A stretch of DNA of 14,472 nucleotides, from contig CAXGWI010000091.1 in NCBI GenBank assembly GCA_964013405.1, positions 1 through 14,472 on the forward strand, read 5' to 3'. Below the pieces are notes generated by a model. That model was not told the origin of the DNA and did no database searches. It worked only from the letters and a program-made list of their open reading frames with translations. The translations under genes and the position numbers were made by a program. Source of the DNA: an uncultured Myxococcales bacterium. Lineage in GTDB: Bacteria > Myxococcota > UBA4151. This document shows, piece after piece, positions 361 to 14,116 of the stretch (positions are counted from its first letter, which is position 1; every line of letters begins with the position of its first letter).

Positions 361-527
361 AAAAAACGTTCATAACGTTCAGGCGCACAGGCAGCCGCTT
401 CTGATTTAACTAACTGTATTCCCTTGTATTCAGTCTTTGACTCTAAGTCACCATGGACGTTTTTGGCGATTTCTGCCTTGCGCTCCCCTCGATTTTCGAC
501 CAAAACGTAAGCACTAGGAATGTAACG
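361..527 (+). promoter_or_regulatory. AT-rich putative promoter/operator region of the photolyase operon
   Basis: Direct repeat AACGTTCA (365-372, 374-381), direct repeat TGTATTC (415-421, 425-431), inverted repeat TGACT-cta-AGTCA (438-450) overlapping a -35-like TTGACT (437-442), and RBS-like AGGAA (516-520). No convincing -10 was found. Confidence 0.4.
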
Positions 528-2147
528 ATGAACCTTTTCCTCGATAAGCTCTATCAGCTCCAGCCGACCGTCACCGCCAAGCGCTGGGTTTTTGTGCCCT
601 ATGACCAACTTACCGATGGCTTTGACTCGCTCCTTGACCCCTCCATCCCCGAGCTCGGAATCATCCTCGTCGAAGCCACCGAACGCCCCCATTTCAAGCG
701 CTATCACAAACAGAAACTGGCCCTCATTCTGGCGAACCAACGCCATTTTGCCCTGGAGCAAGTCGGCAAGGGCCGATCCGTCCTTTATGTGACGGCTCCC
801 ACTTACCGTAAAGCCCTCGAGCGAGTCATCGAGAACGTGGGTCAAGTGGAGATGATGGAGCCGGCCGAGCGTGCTTTGCGCAAAGAGTTGGAACCCCTGA
901 TCCTCACCGGTCGGTTGATCGAACATCCGAACCGCTTATGGCTCACCAAGCCCTGGGATTTTCTCGATGCCGCGGATGGACGCCCTTGGCGCATGGACCG
1001 CTTTTATCGTTTGGTCCGCAGTCGATATAACTACCTGATGGATGCAGACGGTCGACCGGCCGGCGGACAGTGGAGCTTCGATTCAGAGAATCGAAAGCCC
1101 TGGAATGAGGCACCAAGGGCGCCAGCCTCCTTGGTGTTTGAGCCCGATGAGATCACCGAAGAGGTGGTTCATTTCGTCGCCACCAAGTTTGATCATCATC
1201 CCGGGCAGATTGACACCAGCCGACTCCCCGCGACGGCAGCGGACGCCGCTGCCATTTGGCGCCGAGCCCAAAAGGACTGCCTGGAGCATTTCGGGCCCTA
1301 TGAAGACGCGATGTCGACCCGATCTCCGACCTTGTTCCATACCTTGATCTCCAGCGTCATGAATTTGGGCAGATTAAGCCCCCAGCGCGTCCTTGAGGAT
1401 GTTCTTGAGATGTCGATTCCGTTGAACAGCAAAGAGGGATTCCTCCGCCAGGTTCTCGGCTGGCGGGAGTTTGTTCGGCATGTTCACTATCAAAGTGACG
1501 GCTTTCGGCGCTTGCCAACCTACGCCAGCCCCGTTCCCCGGGACGCCGGCGGTGCAGTCAATGCACTGGCTGCCCATGAACCTTTGCCACCGGTGTTTTG
1601 GGGTGGCGCTCCTTCCGGTCTAAATTGCTTAGACCGGGTGGTCGAAGAGGTGGTTGGGACGGGTTACACTCACCACATCAATCGCCTGATGGTCTTAGCC
1701 AACTGGGCCACGCTCCTCGGCGTGACGCCAAGGGAGCTCACCGACTGGTTTTGGTGCATGTTCATCGATGCTTATGATTGGGTCGTTGAGCCCAATGTCT
1801 TGGGGATGGGTACGTTCGCTACAGGGCCTTTAATGAGCACCAAGCCCTACATCTCTGGCAGCGCCTACATCAAAAGAATGAGTGACTATTGCGGGGATTG
1901 TCGCTTCACACCTGGCGAAGACTGCCCCATGACCTCTCTTTATTGGAGCTTTCTGGATCGAAACGCCGACCCGCTGCAATCATCCCATCGCATGCTCATG
2001 CCCCTGGCTTCGGCGAGAGGTCGCAGTGTGGCTCAAAAGGAGCGTGACCAGCGCACGCTCAATCATGTGCGCGAGCGGCTTCGGGCTGGGCTCCCAGTGA
2101 CCCCCACCCCGATCGTCGAGGAGGATCGGCAACATGCCTTCGCCTAA
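528..2147 (+). CDS. phrB: Cryptochrome/photolyase family protein, FeS-BCP class (prokaryotic (6-4) photolyase, PhrB/CryB-like)
   Basis: N-terminal YDQL and YHKQKL; 'GGQWSFDSENRK'; 'HFGPYEDAM'; 'EGFLRQVLGWREF'; catalytic 'HHINRLM'; 'DAYDWV'; 'TKPY'; four [4Fe-4S] cysteines (LNC...YCGDC...DCP). ATG 528 is preferred over 453 because of AGGAA 7 nt upstream. Confidence 0.93.
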   Translation: MNLFLDKLYQLQPTVTAKRWVFVPYDQLTDGFDSLLDPSIPELGIILVEATERPHFKRYHKQKLALILANQRHFALEQVGKGRSVLYVTAPTYRKALERVIENVGQVEMMEPAERALRKELEPLILTGRLIEHPNRLWLTKPWDFLDAADGRPWRMDRFYRLVRSRYNYLMDADGRPAGGQWSFDSENRKPWNEAPRAPASLVFEPDEITEEVVHFVATKFDHHPGQIDTSRLPATAADAAAIWRRAQKDCLEHFGPYEDAMSTRSPTLFHTLISSVMNLGRLSPQRVLEDVLEMSIPLNSKEGFLRQVLGWREFVRHVHYQSDGFRRLPTYASPVPRDAGGAVNALAAHEPLPPVFWGGAPSGLNCLDRVVEEVVGTGYTHHINRLMVLANWATLLGVTPRELTDWFWCMFIDAYDWVVEPNVLGMGTFATGPLMSTKPYISGSAYIKRMSDYCGDCRFTPGEDCPMTSLYWSFLDRNADPLQSSHRMLMPLASARGRSVAQKERDQRTLNHVRERLRAGLPVTPTPIVEEDRQHAFA

Positions 2148-3642
2148 ACCTCCACGCAGGATCGCAGTGGCTGGTGGCACAGGATTCATCGGCAAGGGGC
2201 TTCCTCAGGTTCTGGGCGCCTCCAATCACTTGATCTGCTTATCGAGGACTGCACCGAAGCCGCCAGACGGCTACGATGAACTGCGGCAGGCTGATCTTTT
2301 CTCACTCCAAGACACCCGAAAAGCGCTCAAGGGCGTGGACGTGGCGGTCTACCTGGTTCACAGCATGATGCCGGCTGCGCGCTTGATCCAAGGATGCTTT
2401 CAGGATCTCGACCTCTTGTGCGCCGACAACTTCGCTCGAGCGGCAGCGGAAGCCCGGGTGAAGCACATCGTCTACGTCGGCGGTCTGATCCCCGCATTAC
2501 CACCGGAAGGGCTGTCTGAGCATCTGGCAAGCCGGCTCGAAGTGGAGCGTATTTTGGGGAGTCATGGTGTCCCGTGCACCACCTTGCGGGCTGGCATGGT
2601 GATCGGGGCCGAGGGCTCATCTTACCAGTTGATGGCCCGTTTGATTCGACGCTTGCCGATCATGATCTGCCCGCGCTGGACCCAGTCTCAGATGCAACCT
2701 GTGGGTTTAACTGACTTGCGAGAGGCCATCGGCTTGGCAGCCTCCCGATCCGTGACTGCCTCCCAGAGTTATGACGTGAGTTCCGGTGAAGCCCTTAGTT
2801 ATGTGGAGTTAATGGGCCGAGCGGCAACTGCACTCGGGCTCAAGCGCTCTTTCCTACCGGTGCCGTTTCTTTCACCGAAACTCTCTCGGCTCTGGGTCTC
2901 CATGACCACAGGCGCGCCGAAGGCATTGGTGGCGCCCTTGGTCGAAAGTCTGAAGGGGAATATGCTGGCTCGTCCAGGGGCACGCTGGCGTCTCCCGGGC
3001 TTCAAGCCAAGTCCAGTGGACCACCATCTAGAAGAGGCGGCCCGTCTCGACGTAGGCCATCAGCCCCGAGCCTTCCGCTCCGCACACAGTCGCGGTCAAG
3101 CGACGGAGGCGATCGTTCATTCAGTTCAGCGATTCCAGATGCCACAGGCGGGCTCAGCTCGTTGGGCGGCTCGGTGCTACACTGCCTGGCTCTCGACCGC
3201 CTTCTTTGGGATGATCCGTATCGAACATCAGCCGAACCGAGATCGAGTTCATTTTCGACTCATCGGCCTGAAGAAGCCACTGCTCACGCTAGAGACAGAC
3301 ACAGGGGTGAGTGAGCGGGACCGCCACGTGTTTAGAATCCAGGGAGGGCTTCTGGCAGCCCGGTCAGGTCGAGGCTATTTGGAATTTCGCACCACCCTAG
3401 ATCAACAACTGATGGTGGCGATCCAAGACTACAAGCCCAGTCTACCTTGGTGGCTCTACCGCCTCACTCAGGCCCAGTTTCACCTGTGGGTCATGCGCTC
3501 CTTTCGTCGCCACTTGGAAGCACAAGAGCCTGGAGCACTGGTCGAGGACACCGCCACGAACCCCAGCCTAGAGGTCACGCTGCCCGCCGGGACTGCCTCG
3601 AAGGCCAAGAGTCCCGTCGAAGTGAGCCCAACTAGGGTCTAG
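2134..3642 (+). CDS. NAD(P)-binding atypical SDR/epimerase (YbjT-like) with C-terminal DUF2867-like domain
   Basis: Rossmann motif '[11 protein letters not shown]', 'AVYLVHSM', '[12 protein letters not shown]', 'LRAGMVIG', '[10 protein letters not shown]'. It overlaps the photolyase gene by 14 nt, suggesting an operon. Confidence 0.88.
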
Positions 3643-5809
3643 GGGCCTCAAACTCCCCATGGACGCAGATGACCCCCGGCAGGGCGTGACTCATGTTGTT
3701 GGCAGCGTGGGTTTGATTGTTGCACGAGTGACCCCCCTGGAAGAGGTCACCCCAGCTGCCGCCCGTATCGCCAACGTCGTAGTTGTCGGAAACGTAGATG
3801 TCCCCGTGCGCTTCCGGCTCGCAGCCGCCCCGGCGCTTCTGCCCGGTGCGGAGATAGCTGGTGTTGTTGCCTTGGGTCGGGAGGCTTCGGTACCAATTAA
3901 AGAGGGCATCGTTCTCCGCGTCGGTGGGCTTGCGGAGGCCGTTGGCGTTCACCAGATCGAAGGTGGCTGGTGTCGAGCCATTGGCGCACATGGCGTTGTT
4001 TAACTCGTACGATGTGATGTTTTGGGTATGCACACAGGCCCAGAGCCCTGGGGTGATCTCCCGGGCAAAGCTGGCCTGATCGGAACAGCCTGCACAGTCC
4101 TCGAAGAGATCGGCATTGTCGGGCGCACAGTCCCCGTCATTGTCGCGACCATCGCCATCCCGGTCGCCATCGCAGACATCGCCTAAAGCATCGTTGTCGA
4201 GGTTTTCCTGCCCCTGGTTTGCCACCTCGGGACAGTTATCGTCGGCATCGGCGATTAGGTCCCGGTCGCTATCCAGGCGGCAATCGGCCATGCAGCCATC
4301 GGCGTTGTCCACATTCCCGTCATCGCAAGCCTCCTCACCAACCAGAACAATACCATCGCCACAGCTCGCCTCGGCACAAATGCCTAAGCAAGCGTCATCG
4401 TCGAGATCGTTCCCATCGTCGCAGGCTTCGAAGCCCTGATCATCGGGCCCCAGATCCAAGCGTACAATGCCATCGCCACAGGTCGCGGCGGTGCAGTTGT
4501 TGAGACAAGCATCTTCGTCGATGACATTGCCGTCATCGCAGATCTCATCCAACTCCAGTCGGCCATTGCCGCAAACGGCCTCTCGGCAGCCATTGTCGCA
4601 GCCGTCGTTCTCGACGTCGTTGCCATCGTCGCATTCCTCTTCGCCGACACGGACCACCCCGTCGCCACAGCGGGCCTGCTGGCAGTCATTGAGGCAGGCA
4701 TCGGTGTTGACACCATTGCCGTCATCGCAGGCTTCAAAGCCCGCCTGGTTCGCTTCGAGGTCGTTCCGTAAAATCCCATCACCGCATTCGGCGATGATAC
4801 AGTTGCCCCGGCAAGCATCACGATCATCTCCGTTGCCGTCATCGCAGGCTTCATTCGGATCGAGGCGCCCGTTGCCGCAATACTCCCGCAGACAACTTGG
4901 ATTGCAGCCGTCGGCGGCTTCCCCATTACCATCATCACATTCTTCATAACCGGCGGCTTCGGGGGCGAGATCATTGCGTAAGATCCCATCACCGCAAGAG
5001 GCCAACTCACAAACCCCCGTACAGGCATCTCGATTGTCGTTGTTGCCATCATCGCAGACTTCGAAGCCGTCCCGAACGAATCCGTCGCCGCAGACCGCCA
5101 CCGCGCAGGAGGAGAGGCAAAAGTCCGTCTCCACGGCGTTGCCATCGTCGCATTGCTCGCCCTCTTGGATCACCCCATCACCACAGGAAGCGGGCTGGCA
5201 CCGGTGACAGGCATCGGTGGGGTCCTCGTTCCCATCGTCGCAGCCCTCGCCCGGGCCCACCACACCATCGCCACAGCGGGCTTCGCTGCAATCGCTCAAG
5301 CAGTTATCATCGTCTGCTTCGTTGCCATCATCGCAGGCCTCAAAACCCAGCAACCCTTCACTGAGATCGTGACGCTGAATGCCATCGCCACAGCGGGCGG
5401 CGACACAGTTGGATAAGCAGCCATCATCATCGGCTGTGTTGCCATCATCGCAGGCTTCGAAGCCCGCAGCGCCCTCGGCCACGTCGCTGCGCAGCATCCC
5501 ATCGCCGCAGCTGGCGATCAGGCAGAGGTTTAAGCAACCATCGGTGTCCACACTGTTGCCATCATCACAGGCTTCATAGCCCGCCTCTTCGGGCCCCAGA
5601 TCACTTCGAGTGACCCCATCGCCGCAGGCAGCCAACTGACAACTGTTGGTGCAGCCATCGGTCATCACCTCATTGCCATCATCACAGCTTTCGCCGGTTT
5701 CAATCTCCCCATTCCCGCAACTGGCTTCGGTTTCTCGCACCACGACTTGGTCACCGCAGGCGCTGAGGATGGTCAGAAAAGCAGCGAGAGATAACAGGCT
5801 TCGATTCAT
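3632..5809 (-). CDS. Lipoprotein with 14 myxobacterial Cys-rich (DUF4215/TIGR02232-type) repeats, thrombospondin type-3 repeats and a C-terminal domain of unknown function
   Basis: Signal peptide [14 protein letters not shown] with lipobox LSA-C; GGAG upstream of ATG 5809; 14 CG[DN]G...CDDGN units; TSP3-like '[35 protein letters not shown]' (4121-4273). Confidence 0.88.
4274..5720 (-). repeat. Array of 14 Cys/Asp-rich protein repeats (8 short, 6 long)
   Basis: Counted in the translation; order from the N-terminus is S L L L S S S L S L S S L S. Confidence 0.85.
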
Positions 5810-5899
5810 GCTTGGCACTCCAGATCACCGAGCCCCAAACTGGCCTAAGGCGCTGTGCGGGGCAAGGGGCCCTCGCTCTAAGAGCCGGATCCTTGGCCT

Positions 5900-6916
5900 T
5901 CACCCCATCGGGCGACCTTGAGGTCGACGGCGACACAGGCAGAGCAGAGCCAGGAACAGCCCGGTCCAAAGATCTATCGCACCCGCTTGACAGCTGGCAA
6001 AGACGCCCCCGGCCCTTGGCTGACCCCCTTGCGGCCCATCCACCCGCTCCACCCGAATGCCCGATTCATCCCCCTCGGCCATGGGCTCGGCAGCGGCGAC
6101 GGCCTGATAAGTGAAAGCGCCATCAATCCGCGCCCCATTTGAGCCGTTTTTGACCGCAATAAAGACGGCACCCGGCTCACCTGGCGGGGTTCGAAAGGTG
6201 AGCGTTCCTTCATTTGGACGCACGACATCGAGACCGGGTTTACCCCCCACGATGACCACCGTCTCTGGGCTAAAGCCAGTCCCAACGAGCCGGACGTGCG
6301 TCCCCCCGCCGACTGGACCAGACACAGGAGAAATCTGATGAATATTGAGTGGTGCATTCGCTGCGCCTTTCCTCGAACCTCCGGTCATTTCGCCTTGTGG
6401 ATTGCCCCAGATTGAAGGGGTCGGCGAGTCGCCGAAGAGCCTAGATTCCTTCCCCATCACTCGAAGGGCCCGCTCGTAATCCCCCTGTTTACCCCTCGGT
6501 AGTCTGAAGTCCGATGAGATGCGCGCAAAACCTTTGGCAGCACCGCTGAGCCATGGGTCCACAAACTGCTTCTGGATCCCCTTCCTGTAATACTTCTCTT
6601 GATCCAGCGTGAGTCCCCTGGGAACCGGCGACCGAGTCATACGGTCGGCCAAATCCACAGCCATGTACGACAACTGCCACAGGTACCAATCGGCCGTGGG
6701 GCGGTTGACCCCCTGGGCCACGAGGCGCTTTATCTCTGCCTCTGCCCCTTTGACCGCTTCCATTTTGGCGACGAGTTGCCTCTTGAGGGATTCGCCCCGG
6801 CGAGCGTTGATCTGCAGGGACAGGGCTGCGCGCACACTGGGTAGGTACTCGATCGAGTCCGAGGGCTGCGCGCCATAGGCGATCTGACCCAAAATGAGGA
6901 CGACGCTCAGTAGCAT
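5900..6916 (-). CDS. Exported protein with helical N-terminal domain, IPT/TIG domain and MYXO-CTERM-like C-terminal sorting tail
   Basis: Start re-set to ATG 6916 (signal-peptide-like MLLSVVLILGQIAYGA, purine-rich upstream); the ORF track's 7330 start overlaps the opposite-strand gene. IPT/TIG 'IHQISPVSGPVGGGTHVRLVGTGF...VIVGG...LTFRTPPG...FTY' (6107-6355). Tail 'GGVFASCQAGAIDLWTGLFLALLCLCRRR'. Confidence 0.82.
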   Translation of the reverse strand: MLLSVVLILGQIAYGAQPSDSIEYLPSVRAALSLQINARRGESLKRQLVAKMEAVKGAEAEIKRLVAQGVNRPTADWYLWQLSYMAVDLADRMTRSPVPRGLTLDQEKYYRKGIQKQFVDPWLSGAAKGFARISSDFRLPRGKQGDYERALRVMGKESRLFGDSPTPSIWGNPQGEMTGGSRKGAANAPLNIHQISPVSGPVGGGTHVRLVGTGFSPETVVIVGGKPGLDVVRPNEGTLTFRTPPGEPGAVFIAVKNGSNGARIDGAFTYQAVAAAEPMAEGDESGIRVERVDGPQGGQPRAGGVFASCQAGAIDLWTGLFLALLCLCRRRPQGRPMG

Positions 6917-7076
6917 CCCTTCACCCCAACCATCAGCGCCCAACTCTTGGCAAACTTCTGGGCTAAAGAACAAGGCTTGCCGTTGGCTCAACGCTACTGG
7001 CTTAAGGCCTGCAGCCATCCCTTGCCCCATCGGCCTTCCTGGGGCCAGTGTCGATGGGGGAAGTAAGGAGGTGACT

Positions 7077-8000
7077 TTGCAGACTGTCCATCCTCTGGTG
7101 ATCGCCTGCTGCTTAAGCGCGTGTGTAGCGCCACCCGGGTCCCCGAGTGGAGATGGGGGCTTACCTTCATCCCCGAGCTGCGGCGATGGCCTGGTCGAGG
7201 GGGAAGAAGCCTGTGATGATGGCAACTGGGATGAGACAGACGACTGTTTGTCCAACTGTGAAATCGCCCGCTGCGGTGATGGGGTGATCGGCCAAGAGGA
7301 ACGCTGCGAGCCGGAAGCAGACAGTGCCAATCCCCACTGTGATGCGGATTGCCAACTGGCGGACTGTGGGACGGTTTTTGACTATCAGGCCCTCTGGGTC
7401 CGGGGCTTTCGAGTCTGTCGAGCCGAAGCGCTCCATGAGGCCGATGGGGATTTGAGTGAGCGGGCGGTGGCAGCCCTGGAAGAGGATCTCGACATCATCG
7501 CCGCAGCCTTGCCCGTTGCCGCTATGAACTATTTAAAGCGAGTCACCATCTGGCTAGAGTACGAACAGGACTTTCCGGGGGGTGTTTATCATCCTTCTCC
7601 CGTCTGGCTGCGCAACAATGGCTATCCCGAAGCCTGGGCTGAAGGCGTCCAGTTAGGCAACGCTGCTAACTACATGTCGTGGGTGAGCCAACAGCCGGCC
7701 ATCGTCCTGCACGAGCTGGCCCACGCTTGGCATCACCAATTCCTGGGCTACGACCATGAGGGGATCCAACGAGCCTTTGATGAAGCCATGACGGCGGGGA
7801 TCTACGAAGAAGTGGCCCACGTCGCCGGCGGGAGCCAACAAGCCTATGCCACCTCCAACCGCATGGAGTACTTTGCCGAACTCACGGAAGCCTGGTTTTG
7901 GGTGAACGACTTTTATCCCTTCAACCGGGATGAGCTTCAAGCCCATGACCCAGCGGGGGCGCAGATGATCCAGCAGGCTTGGGGGCTGCGCTCCGAATAG
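7077..8000 (+). CDS. Lipoprotein with 2 Cys-rich repeats and a zinc metallopeptidase domain (HExxH...E; MtfA/anthrax lethal factor-like zincin)
   Basis: Strong SD AAGGAGGT (7065-7072) before TTG 7077; lipobox LSA-C; HELAH (7710-7724); third-ligand motif 'YATSNRMEYFAE' (EYFAE 7866-7880); C-terminal 'L..HDP.G..MI...W'. Confidence 0.87.
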   Translation: MQTVHPLVIACCLSACVAPPGSPSGDGGLPSSPSCGDGLVEGEEACDDGNWDETDDCLSNCEIARCGDGVIGQEERCEPEADSANPHCDADCQLADCGTVFDYQALWVRGFRVCRAEALHEADGDLSERAVAALEEDLDIIAAALPVAAMNYLKRVTIWLEYEQDFPGGVYHPSPVWLRNNGYPEAWAEGVQLGNAANYMSWVSQQPAIVLHELAHAWHHQFLGYDHEGIQRAFDEAMTAGIYEEVAHVAGGSQQAYATSNRMEYFAELTEAWFWVNDFYPFNRDELQAHDPAGAQMIQQAWGLRSE

Positions 8001-8081
8001 GGAGATGTCCGGTGGCATGACGCAACCCCTTGAACGAAAAGAGACGGGCCGATTATTGACATACACACTAGGAGGCTACCG

Positions 8082-9092
8082 ATGAGAACAATCTCGTGGT
8101 TGCTCGCTTTCGTCCTGATCTTCGATGCCCCTACTGCGCCCGCTCAGTCCGATGGCGACCGAATCAAAGAGACAGCCCCGACCCACTATGCCAGTCGCCG
8201 CAAAAGCAAACGAAAGCGGCGCACAAAGCGGCCCAGAAAACCAGCGACAAAACCTGCACAATCCCCTGTTCAAAAGCCGACCACGCCACCAGCCACGCCA
8301 GCCAAACCTGCGCCCGCACCGGTTCAGGAAGAAGTTGTGGTGCTGCAGCCCGAGGAGCCGACCAAACCCAGCATCGCCGTCATGGAGATTACCGCCTCAG
8401 AAGCCCTCGATGCTGCCGTGGTCAAATTGCTCAACGAGCGCGTTCTCGCCCGGATCAACACCAACAACCGCTTCGACAATGTCATCGGGAGTTCAGACAT
8501 TCAGGCGATGCTCGATCTGGAACAGACCCGAAATGCCCTCGGCTGCGACGACGAAAGTTGTCTCACTGAACTGGGCGGCGCTCTGGGTGTCCCCTACCTC
8601 ATGGTGGCAAACATCGGCTCCTTCGCAGGGCAATTCATCGTCAACATGAAGGTCCTCAAAGTGGAAGATGGCACCGTCGGCTCCCGGGTCAGTTACTGCA
8701 TGCCCAACGCGCTGACGATCATGACGGGTCTCGCCTTGCCCGTGGACCAAGCCATCGAACTGGCCCTCGATCCCAAGGCGGTCCTCGCGAACAACGGCTC
8801 CAACACGTCGGTGAACAAATGCACCGTACCGCTGACCCAAAAGAAAACCTTCTGGGCGGGCACGGGCATGACCACGGCATCGCTGCTCGGCTTTGCATTT
8901 TTCAATGTGTCCAACTCCGAGTTGCAGAATCTCAAAGGCCAGTACGACCTCGCGCGGGGACAAGACGCCATCGACCGCTGGACCGATTTGGAGGCTGCCA
9001 GCCAACAAGCGTTGATCGCTCGCACCGCCGCGCCCATCGGTGTCGCAGCTGGTGCCGCCTTGCTCGTCTACGCCGTCGTTGCGGAGGACTAA
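8082..9092 (+). CDS. Exported/membrane-anchored protein: basic tract, Pro-rich linker, TolB-N/CsgG-like alpha/beta domain, two C-terminal hydrophobic segments
   Basis: AGGAGG at 8070-8075; signal-peptide-like N-terminus; 'SIAVMEI...DIQAMLDLEQTRNALGCDDESCLTELGGALGVPYLMVANIG', a pattern I recognise from myxobacterial PEGA-associated proteins; hydrophobic 'FWAGTGMTTASLLGFAFF' and 'APIGVAAGAALLVYAVVA'. Confidence 0.8.
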   Translation: MRTISWLLAFVLIFDAPTAPAQSDGDRIKETAPTHYASRRKSKRKRRTKRPRKPATKPAQSPVQKPTTPPATPAKPAPAPVQEEVVVLQPEEPTKPSIAVMEITASEALDAAVVKLLNERVLARINTNNRFDNVIGSSDIQAMLDLEQTRNALGCDDESCLTELGGALGVPYLMVANIGSFAGQFIVNMKVLKVEDGTVGSRVSYCMPNALTIMTGLALPVDQAIELALDPKAVLANNGSNTSVNKCTVPLTQKKTFWAGTGMTTASLLGFAFFNVSNSELQNLKGQYDLARGQDAIDRWTDLEAASQQALIARTAAPIGVAAGAALLVYAVVAED

Positions 9093-11756
9093 GTGAGATA
9101 CCTCCTCTGCCTCGTCGTCGGACTCGCCGGCTGCTTGCCCACCGGGCTCGAAAACCGCGACAACCCCCTCGACCCCCAAGCCCCCAGTTATGAAGCCGCT
9201 TGCGGCAACGGGCTCTTGGATGAAGGCGAGGTCTGTGATGATGGCAACACGGTGAGCAGTGATGCCTGCGTCAACTGCCAAACAGCCTTCTGCGGCGATG
9301 GCGTCCGTCGCCTCGGGCTGGCGCGCGATGACGCAGCCTACGAAGAGTGCGATGATGGCAACACGGTCCAGACCGACAGTTGCTCCGACGACTGTCAACT
9401 CGCTGCCTGCGGCAATGGACGCATCGATCCCGGTGAGGATTGTGACGACCGCAACCTGAACGACCGAGACAGTTGCTCCAGCCAATGCAGCCTGGCCTTT
9501 TGTGGAGATGGTATCGTCCGCAACGACCTCCCCGAAGATCATCCCGATCACGAGCGCTGTGACGACGGTAATGACCAAGACGATGACAGTTGCTCCAGCG
9601 ACTGCCAACCGGCCCGCTGTGGGGATGGCATCCTGCGGCAGGACAAGGTGGAGGGCGAAGTAGGCTATGAAGCCTGCGACGATGGCAACGGGGATGAAGC
9701 CGATGCCTGTCGCAGCAGTTGCCGATTGGCTTCCTGTGGGGATGGCATCCTCCGTGAGGACCTCAGCCCCAACGATGAAGGCTATGAAGCCTGCGACGAC
9801 GGCAACCCGATCGAGGTCGACGATTGTACACCGACCTGCCAAATCGCCCGCTGTGGCGATGGTTACCTGCGGCTCACCGATCCCCCAGAGGGCGAACTCC
9901 CCGAGCAATGCGATGACGGGAACCCGAACGATAACGATGGCTGTCTCAACAACTGCCAACTGGCCCAATGTGGCGATGGGTTTGTCCGGGAGGATCTCGA
10001 TCCCGGATCGCTGAATGCCTGCGATCCAGCAGCCCCAAACTGTCCCGAAGGCGAACTGTGTTTGGTGAATCGCTGCTATCGGATCGGCTACGAATCGTGC
10101 GACGACCAAAACGCGGTGAATGACGACGCCTGTCTCACCGGCTGTATCGCCGCCCGATGCGGTGATGGCGTGTTGCGGACCGATCGCAACGAAAATCAGG
10201 ATGACTACGAAGCCTGCGATGATGGCAATGACAACGAGGCCGACGCATGTGTTGAGTGTCAGATCACCGGCTGTGGCGACGGCATCCGGCAAGCGCTCAC
10301 GGGTGAAGAGTGCGACGATGGTAACGACAACGATCACGACCTATGCGATCGCGAGTGTCTCCTGACTCGTACGGTGGCGATCGGCGGGCTTCACAGTTGT
10401 GCGCTGCACGTCGAGGACGGCGCCTTCGACGGTCGAGTTGCCTGCTGGGGCGATAATCGCTGGGGACAGATGGGCCAAGGCAATGTGGACCTCGACGCCA
10501 GCCAGTCCAGGCCCAATCCGGTTCCTGATCTCGAAGACGTGGTTGCGCTGTCCGCGGGACAGGCCACGACCTGCGCACTGAGTGCAGCAGGCACCGTCGC
10601 CTGCTGGGGTATGGGTTCAAACGGGCAGATTGGCGCTGGTGAAGCCTCCGATGAGGTCTGTAACGGTGACGACCGCTGCACATCGAGTCCAACCAGCGTC
10701 GTCAATCTCGGCGGCGGCGCCCAAGATCTCAGTTCCGGTACCTTTCACAACTGCGTCATCGATCCCAATCGCCGGAGTCGTTGCTGGGGTTATGGCGGTT
10801 TCTATCAACTCGGCGACGGCGTTGCGAACGTCAATCAACCCAGACCACGACTGGGTCCCGCTTTATCAAAGCAGCGCATCACCGCGGGCTTCTACCACAG
10901 TTGTGCGCTGAGTACGGAGGGCGAGGTCAGTTGTTGGGGCCGGGGCGTTGCCGGGCAACTGGGTGCTGGCACAAGAGAGGAGTATATCCAGAGTCCGGTT
11001 GCGGTGCAGTGGGCTGACCGTAGCCCAGTTGATGAGGTCATCGTCCTCCATTCGGGCATGAATCATAACTGCATCATCCGAGATGTTGAGACCCAAGAGG
11101 TTCGGTGCTGGGGCGCCAACGACAAGGACCAACTCGCCGCGCGAGGACCCGGGGGAAGAGATCAAGGCGGCCTTGACGAAGCGAGAGGCGAGTATTGCGG
11201 CCGTGAGGCTTGTGCCGAAGGCAACCTTTGCGTCACCGAGGACGGCGATCCCAACCGACGATTCTGCTACCGCAGTTGCGAGGCAGACGATGATTGTCCC
11301 CTGGGCCAGGCCTGCTCAGAGGAGCAGACTTGCCAAATGGCCGCCTGCGGAGAAGACAACAACTCGCCCTGCATGGCGCTGCCAAGAGCCCCAGGCGACG
11401 ACAACCTTCAACCTCTTGTCGGCGCACTCGCCTTAGGGGGCGGCCAGCATCACACCTGCATCCTTCTGGCCAATCGGCAAATGAAATGCTGGGGAAGCAA
11501 CCAGTTCGGACAGTTGGGTAACCTTGGCATCAACGGGTCCCGCGGTACCTGGTTTCAAAATCCAGCCATGTCCGTCAACCGGGCGAAGACCATCGAGGGG
11601 GCAAGCGAGATCAGGGAAGTCGGGCTCGGGATGTCCATCGGCCATCAATGTTATCGGGATACCGAACGAAGGGTCTTCTGTTTGGGAGACAACAGTGGTT
11701 ATCAACTGGGTGATGGCAGTTCAGAGCGGCGCCTCTTGCCGGTCCAGGCCCAGTAA
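9093..11756 (+). CDS. Lipoprotein with 10 Cys-rich repeats and a 7-repeat RCC1/BLIP-II-like beta-propeller
   Basis: GTG directly follows the upstream TAA; lipobox LAG-C; 10 CG[DN]G...CDD units; seven 'H.C....C[WL]G.N..GQLG'-type repeats from ~10374. Confidence 0.9.
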   Translation: MRYLLCLVVGLAGCLPTGLENRDNPLDPQAPSYEAACGNGLLDEGEVCDDGNTVSSDACVNCQTAFCGDGVRRLGLARDDAAYEECDDGNTVQTDSCSDDCQLAACGNGRIDPGEDCDDRNLNDRDSCSSQCSLAFCGDGIVRNDLPEDHPDHERCDDGNDQDDDSCSSDCQPARCGDGILRQDKVEGEVGYEACDDGNGDEADACRSSCRLASCGDGILREDLSPNDEGYEACDDGNPIEVDDCTPTCQIARCGDGYLRLTDPPEGELPEQCDDGNPNDNDGCLNNCQLAQCGDGFVREDLDPGSLNACDPAAPNCPEGELCLVNRCYRIGYESCDDQNAVNDDACLTGCIAARCGDGVLRTDRNENQDDYEACDDGNDNEADACVECQITGCGDGIRQALTGEECDDGNDNDHDLCDRECLLTRTVAIGGLHSCALHVEDGAFDGRVACWGDNRWGQMGQGNVDLDASQSRPNPVPDLEDVVALSAGQATTCALSAAGTVACWGMGSNGQIGAGEASDEVCNGDDRCTSSPTSVVNLGGGAQDLSSGTFHNCVIDPNRRSRCWGYGGFYQLGDGVANVNQPRPRLGPALSKQRITAGFYHSCALSTEGEVSCWGRGVAGQLGAGTREEYIQSPVAVQWADRSPVDEVIVLHSGMNHNCIIRDVETQEVRCWGANDKDQLAARGPGGRDQGGLDEARGEYCGREACAEGNLCVTEDGDPNRRFCYRSCEADDDCPLGQACSEEQTCQMAACGEDNNSPCMALPRAPGDDNLQPLVGALALGGGQHHTCILLANRQMKCWGSNQFGQLGNLGINGSRGTWFQNPAMSVNRAKTIEGASEIREVGLGMSIGHQCYRDTERRVFCLGDNSGYQLGDGSSERRLLPVQAQ

Positions 11757-14116
11757 TGCAGCGGGTTCTCCTCCTCCTCCTGTTGAGTCCTGCTCTCGCC
11801 TGTCTCCCGCCAGGCCTCACGGAGCGAAACAACGCTGACGATCCAGCGAGTCCCGAATTCGTGGCCCGCTGCGGCAATGGGGTTCTCGAACTCGCCCTAG
11901 GGGAGAGCTGTGACGACGGTAACGATATCGATGAGGACGCCTGCACAACGGCTTGCCGAGAAGCGAGTTGCGGCGATGGCATCGTTCGTCGCGACCTTGA
12001 TCCCGACGCCCCCCTCGCGGAGGCCTGCGATGACGGCAACGATGCCGACGACGATCAATGCACCAGCGACTGCCAGGCCAATCGCTGCGGGGACGGAATT
12101 CTCAACCCCGGCGAAGACTGCGATGATGGGAACGACGACTCCAGTGATGGCTGTACAAGCCGTTGCGAGGAGGCTCGCTGTGGCGATGGGACCAGGCGAC
12201 GAGATCGGCTTCTTGGAGAACTCGGCTACGAAGCCTGCGATGATGGGAACGACGACGAGACCGACGCGTGCCTCAATGGCTGCACCGTCGCCCGCTGTGG
12301 TGACTTCGTGCGACGGCAAGATCTCGAGCCGGGGGCCGAGGGATATGAAGCCTGTGATGATGGGAATCAGGACCCTAGGGACAGTTGTACGGCCGACTGC
12401 GTCGTCGCTTCTTGTGGCGATGGCGTGGTGCGACAGGATCTTGCGCCGGGCAGCGACGGTGCCGAATCGTGCGACGACGGCAATGATGATGAGCAGGACG
12501 GCTGCACCGGGGATTGTCAGCAGGCTCGATGTGGTGATGGCATCCTGCGAACCGATCTTGATGGTGACCATCCCAACTACGAGGCCTGTGACGATGGGAA
12601 TCTGGACAATCGGGACCGTTGCTCCGTGATCTGTCGCCAAGCGACGTGCGGCGATGGGCTGGTGCGACAGGATCTCGAGCCGGGCGAGGACGACTATGAG
12701 GCCTGTGACGACCGCAATGAAAACAATTTGGACGGCTGTACCAACGCCTGCCAGCGCGCTCGATGCGGTGACGGCATCTTACGAACGGACCTCGCCCAAG
12801 GCTTCCCAGGTGCCGAAGCCTGCGATGATGGCAATGAGATCGATGGGGATGATTGCCTCAACAACTGCCAGCCCGCTCGCTGCGGTGATGCTGTCCTTCA
12901 GATCACCAGTGCCGATGAGAACGCCCCCCTCGAAGAATGCGATGACGGCAACCGCCTCACCGGCGATGCCTGTGACAACGATTGCCTGCGGCCTGCCACC
13001 CTCGCTGTCGGCACAAAACATGTGTGTAGTCTCGAGGAGGGACGTGTCTGGTGCTGGGGTGATCATCGTTACGGGCAGTTGGGCTTCATCCCAGCGAATC
13101 CGGAACAAACCCGATTCCACCGCCCTCAAAGAGTGGCTGACTTAGCGGGGCAAGTCGCCATTTTCGCGGGGGAAGCGACCACGTGCTCAGCCGATGCGGA
13201 AGGCAACGTCTCTTGCTGGGGTCGTCATCGAATGGGCCACGTGCCCATCCAAATCCCCGAGGGCGGGGCTCAGGTCTATGAACCCGTGTCGATTCCTGAC
13301 CTCGCTGGCACAAGGTACATGGATCTCACTCGCCCTGAGTTCTTTCAAGACGCCGCGTGGGGCTGTGCCTTGTCGGCCGATCTGGAGGCTTCATGCTGGG
13401 GCCAGAATTACTCGGGGCAGTTGGCCGCGGAGGACGTTTGGGAAACACGGATACCCATCCCCTTCGCACAGGGCTTGCCTATCACCCATCTCGCGGTCGC
13501 CGGCCTCGAGTTGCCAAACGGCTCATGTCGTCGAACACAACAGACCTGCTTCAGCGACGAAGAGGGCGAACTCTACTGTGTGGGCGAAAATCGGGGTGTC
13601 TTCCAAGGCGATGGCTGCGGATTTGGCACGCCTAGCCCCCAACCGATCGAGGTGGCTGGCTCCGGCACAGCGCTGGCCTGTTCCCTATTGAGTTGCTGCA
13701 TGATCACCGACGATGAAGGGCATGTAGCGTGCACAAAGGCCCCTCGACTGGTTGGGCCTGAAGACGGTGAGCCGAGCCGTTTTCGTCAGTTGGCTGGTGG
13801 CGGTGAAAACTTCTGCGGCGTGACCACCAACCATAGTTTGCGTTGCTTCGGGGACTCCTGGGACCTTTACGGCCTGCAGGCGGCCGATCCCAGATCACGG
13901 GCCCAGACGGATGGCTACAAGCCAGTACGTCCTCGAGGCAGTGGGGATCTCCGTTTCCGGGAAGCGCGGATTGGTGGGCTCTCCGCCTGCGCTCGAACTG
14001 ACGAAGGTTCCGTGTACTGCTGGGGCCGAAATGATTCCGGTCAGGTGGGCCTCGCCCAGATGGGTCCTTTCGAGGATGTCACAGGCATCCAACGCATCGA
14101 GTACCCAGCACCCTAG
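11756..14116 (+). CDS. Lipoprotein with 10 Cys-rich repeats and a more divergent 7-repeat RCC1/BLIP-II-like propeller; paralog of the upstream gene
   Basis: TAATG stop/start overlap; signal MQRVLLLLLLSP with lipobox ALA-C; 10 repeats; propeller repeats from ~13001 (VWCWG, VSCWG, ASCWG, LYCVG, VAC, LRCFG, VYCWG). Confidence 0.9.
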   Translation: MQRVLLLLLLSPALACLPPGLTERNNADDPASPEFVARCGNGVLELALGESCDDGNDIDEDACTTACREASCGDGIVRRDLDPDAPLAEACDDGNDADDDQCTSDCQANRCGDGILNPGEDCDDGNDDSSDGCTSRCEEARCGDGTRRRDRLLGELGYEACDDGNDDETDACLNGCTVARCGDFVRRQDLEPGAEGYEACDDGNQDPRDSCTADCVVASCGDGVVRQDLAPGSDGAESCDDGNDDEQDGCTGDCQQARCGDGILRTDLDGDHPNYEACDDGNLDNRDRCSVICRQATCGDGLVRQDLEPGEDDYEACDDRNENNLDGCTNACQRARCGDGILRTDLAQGFPGAEACDDGNEIDGDDCLNNCQPARCGDAVLQITSADENAPLEECDDGNRLTGDACDNDCLRPATLAVGTKHVCSLEEGRVWCWGDHRYGQLGFIPANPEQTRFHRPQRVADLAGQVAIFAGEATTCSADAEGNVSCWGRHRMGHVPIQIPEGGAQVYEPVSIPDLAGTRYMDLTRPEFFQDAAWGCALSADLEASCWGQNYSGQLAAEDVWETRIPIPFAQGLPITHLAVAGLELPNGSCRRTQQTCFSDEEGELYCVGENRGVFQGDGCGFGTPSPQPIEVAGSGTALACSLLSCCMITDDEGHVACTKAPRLVGPEDGEPSRFRQLAGGGENFCGVTTNHSLRCFGDSWDLYGLQAADPRSRAQTDGYKPVRPRGSGDLRFREARIGGLSACARTDEGSVYCWGRNDSGQVGLAQMGPFEDVTGIQRIEYPAP

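Follow-up and report, generated by a model that had tools for sequence, protein, structure and literature searches.

What connects a membrane-anchored protein to the lipoproteins encoded immediately behind it? The question arises from a 14,472-nt stretch of DNA (the window), which is a complete contig (C91) of the 3.9 Mb, 94% complete genome of an uncultured Myxococcales bacterium, referred to here as the source genome. On its forward strand lie three adjoining genes (Table 1): gene 1, whose product combines a TolB-N/CsgG-like domain with a helical hairpin at the C-terminus, and genes 2 and 3, encoding lipoproteins whose stalks carry RCC1-like propellers. The original prediction read these as a translationally coupled operon in which gene 1 acts as an anchor, oligomeric platform or export factor for the two lipoproteins, and took the coupling as a sign of stoichiometric co-production. 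The three reading frames, the zero-gap TAA-GTG junction between genes 1 and 2 (9092/9093) and the TAATG overlap between genes 2 and 3 are as described there. The true unit is a hairpin gene followed by any lipoprotein gene and not the three-gene layout with RCC1 cargo; the operon in the window is one unremarkable copy, and the family-wide cassette is the finding.

Judged by its sequence and predicted structure, gene 1 is a member of a large unnamed family in which a TolB-N/CsgG-like domain is joined to a Gly-rich helical hairpin. The AlphaFold2 model, built on 120 sequences, has a predicted local distance difference test (pLDDT) value of 89.6 and consists of an alpha/beta domain followed by a long helical hairpin. 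Comparison of the modeled domain (residues 93-232) with the TolB N-domain gives a Z of 11.5 (root-mean-square deviation, rmsd, 2.7; 113 aligned residues) and with chain 6lqh_A of a curli complex a Z of 9.9 (rmsd 5.0, 122 aligned), while Foldseek retrieves TolB at E 1.7e-5 and CsgG (4uv2) at E 9.6e-4. The fold neighbors are TolB-N, CT253, FlgT, LpoB, CsgG, PelC and, weakly, TraT (PDB 9e2v; Z 7.8, rmsd 2.5, 98 aligned), and an Atlas search agrees. This comparison bears out the domain that had been proposed from the sequence, and the Cys pair noted with it, Cys155 and Cys160 of the motif GCDDESC, forms the only invariant columns among 120 aligned homologues. The two C-terminal hydrophobic segments described earlier, residues 257-276 and 312-334, are predicted to form the helical hairpin, with a polar helical extension between them; the first is weakly hydrophobic, with no 19-residue window above 1.2 on the Kyte-Doolittle scale. 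There is no N-terminal lipobox, the first 154 residues being free of Cys.

Pfam and NCBIfam hold no family match for gene 1, a PDB sequence search gave nothing for its domain, and the CsgG model PF03783 matched one of the 120 homologues (E 0.008) and not gene 1 itself. The glycine-zipper families of Pfam matched neither gene 1 nor any of 36 hairpins. When the family profile was searched against the PDB, the matches were a designed coiled coil and, below significance, hydrophobic hairpins of the MakA/Nhe type (E 0.03-0.04), both set aside as compositional, and a MakA/Nhe-type likeness of one of the 36 hairpins (E 0.018) was rejected as compositional as well. DUF5683 (PF18935) has no Pfam match in the source genome; in an Atlas search with the hairpin alone the best template modeling (TM) score was 0.80, below the bar for naming, which leaves this family as a lead by shape. 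By its own profile, gene 1 is far from rare. The source genome contains 20 matches to its domain by single-sequence search and 31 by profile, with about 17 copies of the full domain-plus-hairpin protein; five genomes of the same family hold 16 to 22 domain matches each, 108 of 151 genomes of the phylum hold a match, and 14,494 cluster representatives match the profile. Among 22 candidate stretches from viral contigs, no relative was confirmed.

The link to lipoproteins was counted with hidden Markov models (HMMs) where possible. For the source genome, the hairpin HMM was trained on other genomes, and a lipoprotein gene starting within -30 to +60 nt was counted as a follower. Genes with both domain and hairpin have a lipoprotein next in 13 of 16 cases as compared with 281 of 2945 other genes (Fisher p 3e-11, an overstated value, as are the pairing p-values in general, because the sets overlap and paralogues and kin are not independent). 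The domain without the hairpin is followed by a lipoprotein in 2/13 cases and the hairpin without the domain in 3/6, and the junctions are mostly overlaps of the ATGA type. Relatives of gene 1 show the same tendency: under a strict and rather crude lipobox rule, a lipoprotein follows 39 of the 52 relatives with a hairpin and 12 of the 33 without one (one locus being counted twice), and eight further misses among those with a hairpin are lipoproteins by eye. In loci from other families, the follower is present in 25/35 with a hairpin and 4/13 without one; counted by gene, 39 of 57 hairpin genes in other families are followed by a lipoprotein vs 8 of 191 bystander genes from those loci. With the hairpin alone as the model, 56 matches were obtained in five near-complete genomes, of which 41 were examined, most of them lacking the CsgG-like domain; a lipoprotein follows in 21 of the best 30. 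Each of three single-contig genomes of 9-10 Mb has 6 to 11 hairpin matches.

Taken together, these counts indicate that the hairpin carries most of the lipoprotein link. The cargo behind hairpin genes varies from stalked propellers to other stalked heads and unrelated domains. A check of the neighborhoods of gene 1 homologues, suggested along with the earlier operon reading, thus finds lipoprotein followers far above background in both the source genome and the phylum, and this gene context supports gene 1 as the probable partner of a lipoprotein. The cassette appears to be undescribed: no paper on it was found in a search confined to the main parts of openly accessible papers, so that a prior computational mention is possible, and the accessible part of the lipocone paper (PMC12419801) does not describe it. 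It is an unnamed two-part gene cassette common in myxobacteria.

Where such a protein resides can be approached through the charge of its hairpin. According to the positive-inside rule, the cytoplasmic side of inner-membrane segments is basic. The domain of gene 1 should be periplasmic, since the protein appears to have a cleaved signal and a disulfide, and an inner-membrane hairpin behind a periplasmic N-domain would be expected to have a basic cytoplasmic loop. The observed charge is reversed: of 122 members, 89 have a loop with a net negative charge and 13 one with a net positive charge, while 84 have a net positive flank ahead of helix 1. In relatives from other families, the protein ends in Phe, Trp or Tyr in 48 of 84 cases, as compared with 191 of 3029 genes of the source genome, and this residue follows a beta-hairpin-like tail. 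Such an aromatic-ending tail resembles the outer-membrane assembly signal, and some relatives appear by eye to carry whole barrels. By these sequence features, proteins of the gene 1 type are likely located in the outer membrane. In three 9-10 Mb genomes (loci L338, L339 and L340), the best match is the gene 1 domain fused to an apparent whole beta-barrel, as read by eye; in L338 the fusion is followed by a lipoprotein and preceded by a gene for an M23-type peptidase (also by eye).

The cargo in the window is of a common kind. Genes 2 and 3 are stalked RCC1 lipoproteins, as had been proposed, with lipobox cysteines encoded at 9132 and 11801, TIGR02232/DUF4215 repeats (131.5 and 131.8 bits as compared with a curated cut-off of 20.8) and RCC1 domains. 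PF00415 and PF13540 are above cut-off in both and PF25390 in gene 2 only. The RCC1-like domain of gene 2 matches UVR8 by sequence at E 4e-27; for gene 3, the propeller model (pLDDT 78.9, one stretch poorly modeled) matches UVR8 at E 1.5e-21 with a TM score of 0.61. The source genome has 129 genes with at least two TIGR02232/DUF4215 repeats, 33 of which also carry CWG repeats, and genes 2 and 3 are ordinary members of this large expansion; a literature search found no function for the combination of TIGR02232/DUF4215 with RCC1-like domains. The two proteins are 41% identical over their best segment and 28% in the propellers. Over the first 22 residues of the mature proteins, each is the other's best match among 571 lipoproteins (score 51 vs 39 and 31). 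Their stalks and propellers are not reciprocal best hits, and a recent tandem duplication is for that reason not favored, an old one still being possible.

These first residues after the lipidated Cys, termed the tag here, differ in lipoproteins behind hairpin genes. In the source genome, the residue at +2 is hydrophobic in 7 of 14 followers vs 79 of 557 other lipoproteins. Against a background taken from the source genome only, 46 followers from other families are hydrophobic in 54, 52 and 43% at +3 to +5, and 71% of 21 followers in hairpin-only loci have a bulky hydrophobic residue at +3. Long-loop hairpins pair with tags of the R-x-N-P-x-D type and short-loop hairpins with a small disulfide module, and in two other genomes a long-loop hairpin occurs with the same tag type and a different cargo. 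On a tree of 54 rows, the loop/tag label changes 4 times vs 15 in shuffles; 92 of 146 rows had been excluded before labeling for lack of a follower, hairpin or full domain, and 40 more fell outside the family. The sequence R-D-N-P-L-D-P follows the lipobox cysteine in 18 of 120 metagenome matches.

Given such a context, it is tentatively proposed that proteins of the gene 1 type sit in the outer membrane and dock and display the lipoproteins produced alongside them, a reading to which we would give nearly an even chance. Gene 1 would be exported by its signal peptide, and its disulfide-bonded domain would be kept in the periplasm. The Gly-rich hairpin would cross the outer membrane, probably as an oligomer, and either its polar extension or the interface between hairpin and lipid may hold the first ~20 residues after the lipidated cysteine. 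The acidic, disulfide-containing stalks could then serve as spacers that hold the RCC1 propellers, as binding heads, at a distance from the membrane. When residues 93-336 of gene 1 were modeled in three copies together with the 55 N-terminal residues of mature gene 2, the complex scored 0.11 against a mark of 0.32; with no folded controls beside it, this score speaks neither for nor against binding.

Several observations weigh against this proposal. Among the 33 stalk-plus-CWG proteins of the source genome, 23 have no hairpin gene upstream, 4 lie at a contig edge and 6 have a hairpin gene; a lipoprotein of the window itself (3632-5818) is one of the 23. The partner may therefore be accessory rather than obligatory, or may act in trans. 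Thus, of the earlier proposal that gene 1 is an anchor, platform or export factor, the partnership is upheld by context and the required exporter is not. For three of the 16 source-genome copies no lipoprotein was called next in line, although in one of these cases a lipobox can be read by eye; four tandem-domain relatives have no lipoprotein partner, and among the weaker hairpin-only matches just 4 of 11 are followed by a lipoprotein. In other families, 12 of 24 CsgG-like genes without a match to the hairpin model are still paired, so the hairpin is not the whole link. The match between loop and tag is explained equally well by DNA adjacency alone, which weakens the tag reading, and among 13 R-D-N-P-L-D-P lipoproteins with their context shown, one has a hairpin gene in front (locus L201, at zero gap). 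So widespread a tag is no proof of a private partner, and a strict tag-to-hairpin code is weakened accordingly. Finally, gene 1 ends in V-A-E-D with no aromatic tail, and just 10 of 62 members of its own family end in Phe, Trp or Tyr.

Tags also recur in other settings. In six of the 13 loci just mentioned (L194, L223, L240, L244, L262 and L264), the R-D-N-P-L-D-P lipoprotein lies directly before a GAF/sigma-54-type regulator, as read by eye, forming a separate conserved pair. A tandem-domain paralogue of gene 1 on contig C189 (L012) precedes two lipoproteins with a tag of the A-P-I/V type, which is also present on orphan lipoproteins of contigs C166, C89, C8 and C90, and four relatives of this paralogue are not followed by a lipoprotein; these are candidate cases of action in trans. 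On contig C29 (L003), a hairpin gene is followed by two lipoproteins with a W-R-x-N tag, and an orphan lipoprotein on C139 has this tag as well.

An alternative possibility, though an unlikely one, is that gene 1 is a dedicated exporter, a ring with a helical pore that reads the tag and flips the lipoprotein to the surface as a helical counterpart of Slam or CsgG. The outer-membrane ring formers CsgG, PelC, FlgT and TraT among the fold neighbors would fit such a role, as would the one-to-one gene pairing, which resembles that of a transporter with its cargo, and the statement in the available text of one paper that the route of myxobacterial lipoproteins to the surface is open (PMC9946355). 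However, the fold scores of the monomeric TolB-N and LpoB equal those of the ring formers, the TraT barrel is described as forming no pore (PMC11733297), and 23 of the 33 similar stalked proteins have no hairpin neighbor. CglB is reported to be surface-exposed even in E. coli (PMC9946355), and Bacteroidota are reported to use the lipopolysaccharide (LPS) translocon for general lipoprotein export (10.64898/2026.10.03.756453), so that private exporters may not be needed. Extended to the phylum, the same idea would make these proteins a multi-copy surface-export system of Myxococcota, in which helical-hairpin oligomers of the outer membrane each read the first post-Cys residues of their own cargo, gene 1 exports both stalked RCC1 adhesins, and orphans with the same tags are served in trans; this, too, is doubtful.

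A decidedly improbable explanation is that no physical partnership exists, and that an ancestral two-gene unit was duplicated many times, leaving envelope proteins that are merely co-expressed. Coupled genes are indeed common. A simple gene caller found 3229 genes in the source genome, and among 2172 same-strand pairs an in-frame start codon (a possible, unvalidated start) occurs at -4 in 669, at -1 in 159 and at 0 in 32, with 781 having one at -4 or -1. With tight junctions this frequent, coupling alone holds little information on stoichiometry, and the inference of stoichiometric co-production falls away. The claim that a Shine-Dalgarno sequence precedes gene 1 only needs correction as well: gene 2 has its own GGAGG, 5 nt from its GTG start, and inspection upstream of the start of gene 3 revealed no clear one. 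A scan for promoters and terminators gave 1 and 2 sites, respectively, no excess over shuffles. Co-expression would also be consistent with counts inflated by related paralogues, with loop and tag types that follow the tree (4 changes vs 15), as linkage alone predicts, and with the occurrence of hairpin genes and of tagged or stalked lipoproteins alone. Against it, the pairing survives replacement both of the partner's N-terminal domain and of the lipoprotein cargo, it turns up repeatedly across the phylum, in loci of many families, and gene 3 keeps the tag while its stalk and propeller are no closer to those of gene 2 than other paralogues are.

Kinases are found near some hairpin genes. Of 32 hairpin genes without the CsgG-like domain, 7 have a kinase motif in the 3.5 kb upstream, one source-genome copy (contig C40) follows a kinase-motif gene, and at metagenome locus L201 consecutive genes encode a kinase-like protein, a hairpin protein and a tagged lipoprotein; RCC1 propellers are, moreover, established binding domains. 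A role for gene 1 as a signaling adaptor, an inner-membrane or trans-envelope protein linking a ligand-binding lipoprotein to a Ser/Thr kinase, is nevertheless highly unlikely, as the motif occurs in none of the 53 CsgG-type hairpin loci whose upstream sequence reaches 2.5 kb or more (a search that may miss long or divergent kinases), no kinase lies upstream of gene 1 in the window, the loop charge argues against the inner membrane, and gene 1 lacks a tail beyond helix 2. Linkage to kinases is confined to a minority of loci, mostly in a different hairpin branch.

How lipoproteins are placed and held at the myxobacterial surface is described as an open question in the part of the literature available here (PMC9946355). 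The cassette links two large unnamed protein sets of the phylum. If the docking partner proposed above or the exporter is real, a helical protein of this kind would represent a new architecture for lipoprotein placement; if the genes are merely co-expressed, the pairing still provides an annotation rule for many hypothetical proteins.

The features of the three genes are collected in Table 1. The first part of the linker of gene 1 (8196-8240), directly after the signal peptide, is very basic, and this patch is also present in at least four paralogues. Upstream, a gene for a secreted zinc-peptidase-like protein (6894-8000, forward strand, likely start near 7098; H-E-x-x-H by eye) has one DUF4215 repeat and ends 81 nt before gene 1; this neighbor is unconserved among paralogues. 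On the reverse strand, 3632-5818 encodes a lipoprotein with 14 TIGR02232 repeats and an N-terminus of the Q-V-V-V-R-E type, which recurs many times in the source genome and, among those listed, never behind a hairpin gene; 5900-7330 encodes an IPT/TIG-domain protein with a weak GlyGly-CTERM-like tail. At 453-3642 (forward strand), a photolyase-related gene overlaps a gene for an NAD-binding epimerase-like protein, both ordinary. The gene downstream of gene 3 is convergent.

Table 1. Positions of the sequence features of genes 1 to 3 in the window.
Feature	Position	Strand	Basis or remark
Shine-Dalgarno sequence AGGAGG of gene 1	8070..8075	+	sequence
Gene 1, 336 amino acids: signal peptide, basic/Pro-rich linker, TolB-N/CsgG-like domain, C-terminal helical hairpin	8082..9092	+	
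Signal peptide, type I and probably cleaved, with A-P-A before Q	8082..8144	+	read by eye
Lys/Arg-rich patch and Pro/Ala-rich linker	8196..8357	+	similar patch in at least 4 paralogues
Predicted TolB-N/CsgG/LpoB/PelC-like alpha/beta domain	8358..8777	+	AlphaFold2, structure comparison
GCDDESC with Cys155/Cys160 pair, residues 154-160	8541-8561	+	
Predicted Gly/Ala-rich helical hairpin	8850..9089	+	no beta-strand tail
Shine-Dalgarno sequence GGAGG of gene 2, within last codons of gene 1	9083..9087	+	sequence
Gene 2, lipoprotein of 887 amino acids, GTG start: lipobox Cys14, N-terminal tag, acidic Cys-rich stalk, RCC1 propeller	9093..11756	+	
Mature N-terminal tag of gene 2: Cys, then R-D-N-P-x-D-P motif	9132..9200	+	
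Stalk of gene 2, made up of about 10 TIGR02232/DUF4215 repeats	9201..10361	+	TIGR02232 E 6e-39, 8 stretches; 10 CG(D/N)G motifs
RCC1-like propeller of gene 2, Cys-rich insert	10368..11753	+	WD40_RLD 173 bits, cut-off 150
TAATG stop/start overlap of genes 2 and 3	11754..11758	+	sequence
Gene 3, lipoprotein of 786 amino acids, layout as gene 2	11756..14116	+	
Mature N-terminal tag of gene 3	11801..11869	+	
TIGR02232/DUF4215 stalk of gene 3, 9 units	11870..12988	+	
RCC1-like propeller of gene 3	12995..14113	+	WD40_RLD 94.6 bits, below cut-off

Several known systems share parts of this layout. The TolB N-domain, LpoB, PelC, CsgG and FlgT have the fold of gene 1 residues 93-232 (Z 9.5 to 11.5); at 9-20% identity, they differ from gene 1 in that it adds the Cys pair and the hairpin and has no lipobox, and TolB has a C-terminal beta-propeller where the model of gene 1 has a helical hairpin. 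Slam, the partner in type 11 secretion, combines TPR repeats with a DUF560 beta-barrel. Like gene 1, it is an envelope partner encoded next to a lipoprotein gene and has a periplasmic N-domain and a membrane part, whereas gene 1 has no DUF560 or TPR match in Pfam and its C-terminus is predicted to be helical. TraT shares a related alpha/beta fold (the Z of 7.8 lying within the range of common arrangements) and helical anchoring in the outer membrane, which in the available description is achieved by a barrel of amphipathic helices without a pore (PMC11733297). Unlike gene 1, TraT is lipidated, its domain is extracellular, its helices do not form a C-terminal hairpin, and it acts as a decamer in surface exclusion, as far as that source goes. 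SlyB and YfgH are described as glycine-zipper lipoproteins of the outer membrane that are predicted to form ring-like oligomers and stabilize envelope proteins (10.64898/2025.12.22.696046). Gly-rich transmembrane helices in the outer membrane are the shared feature; SlyB and YfgH differ in being lipoproteins themselves and, in the accessible text, in having no cognate downstream partner.

The sitB-sitA pair of Myxococcus is comparable in layout, in that a gene with a type I signal overlaps or abuts a downstream lipoprotein gene and plays an accessory part (PMC5562445, PMC8546572). In the text available, sitB overlaps sitA, has a type I signal and helps its lipoprotein without being strictly required (PMC5562445), and many lipoproteins have no sitB in cis (PMC5562445, PMC8546572). 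Compared by description, SitB is a predicted beta-barrel, whereas gene 1 has a predicted helical hairpin and a TolB-N-like domain (PMC5562445, PMC8546572); SitA is likewise described as carrying a toxin with an immunity gene, whereas the lipoproteins of the window end in RCC1 propellers and the next gene is convergent. In its proposed role, the cassette is analogous to sitB-sitA or to Slam-cargo pairs while being a member of neither, nor of the CsgG or TolB systems.

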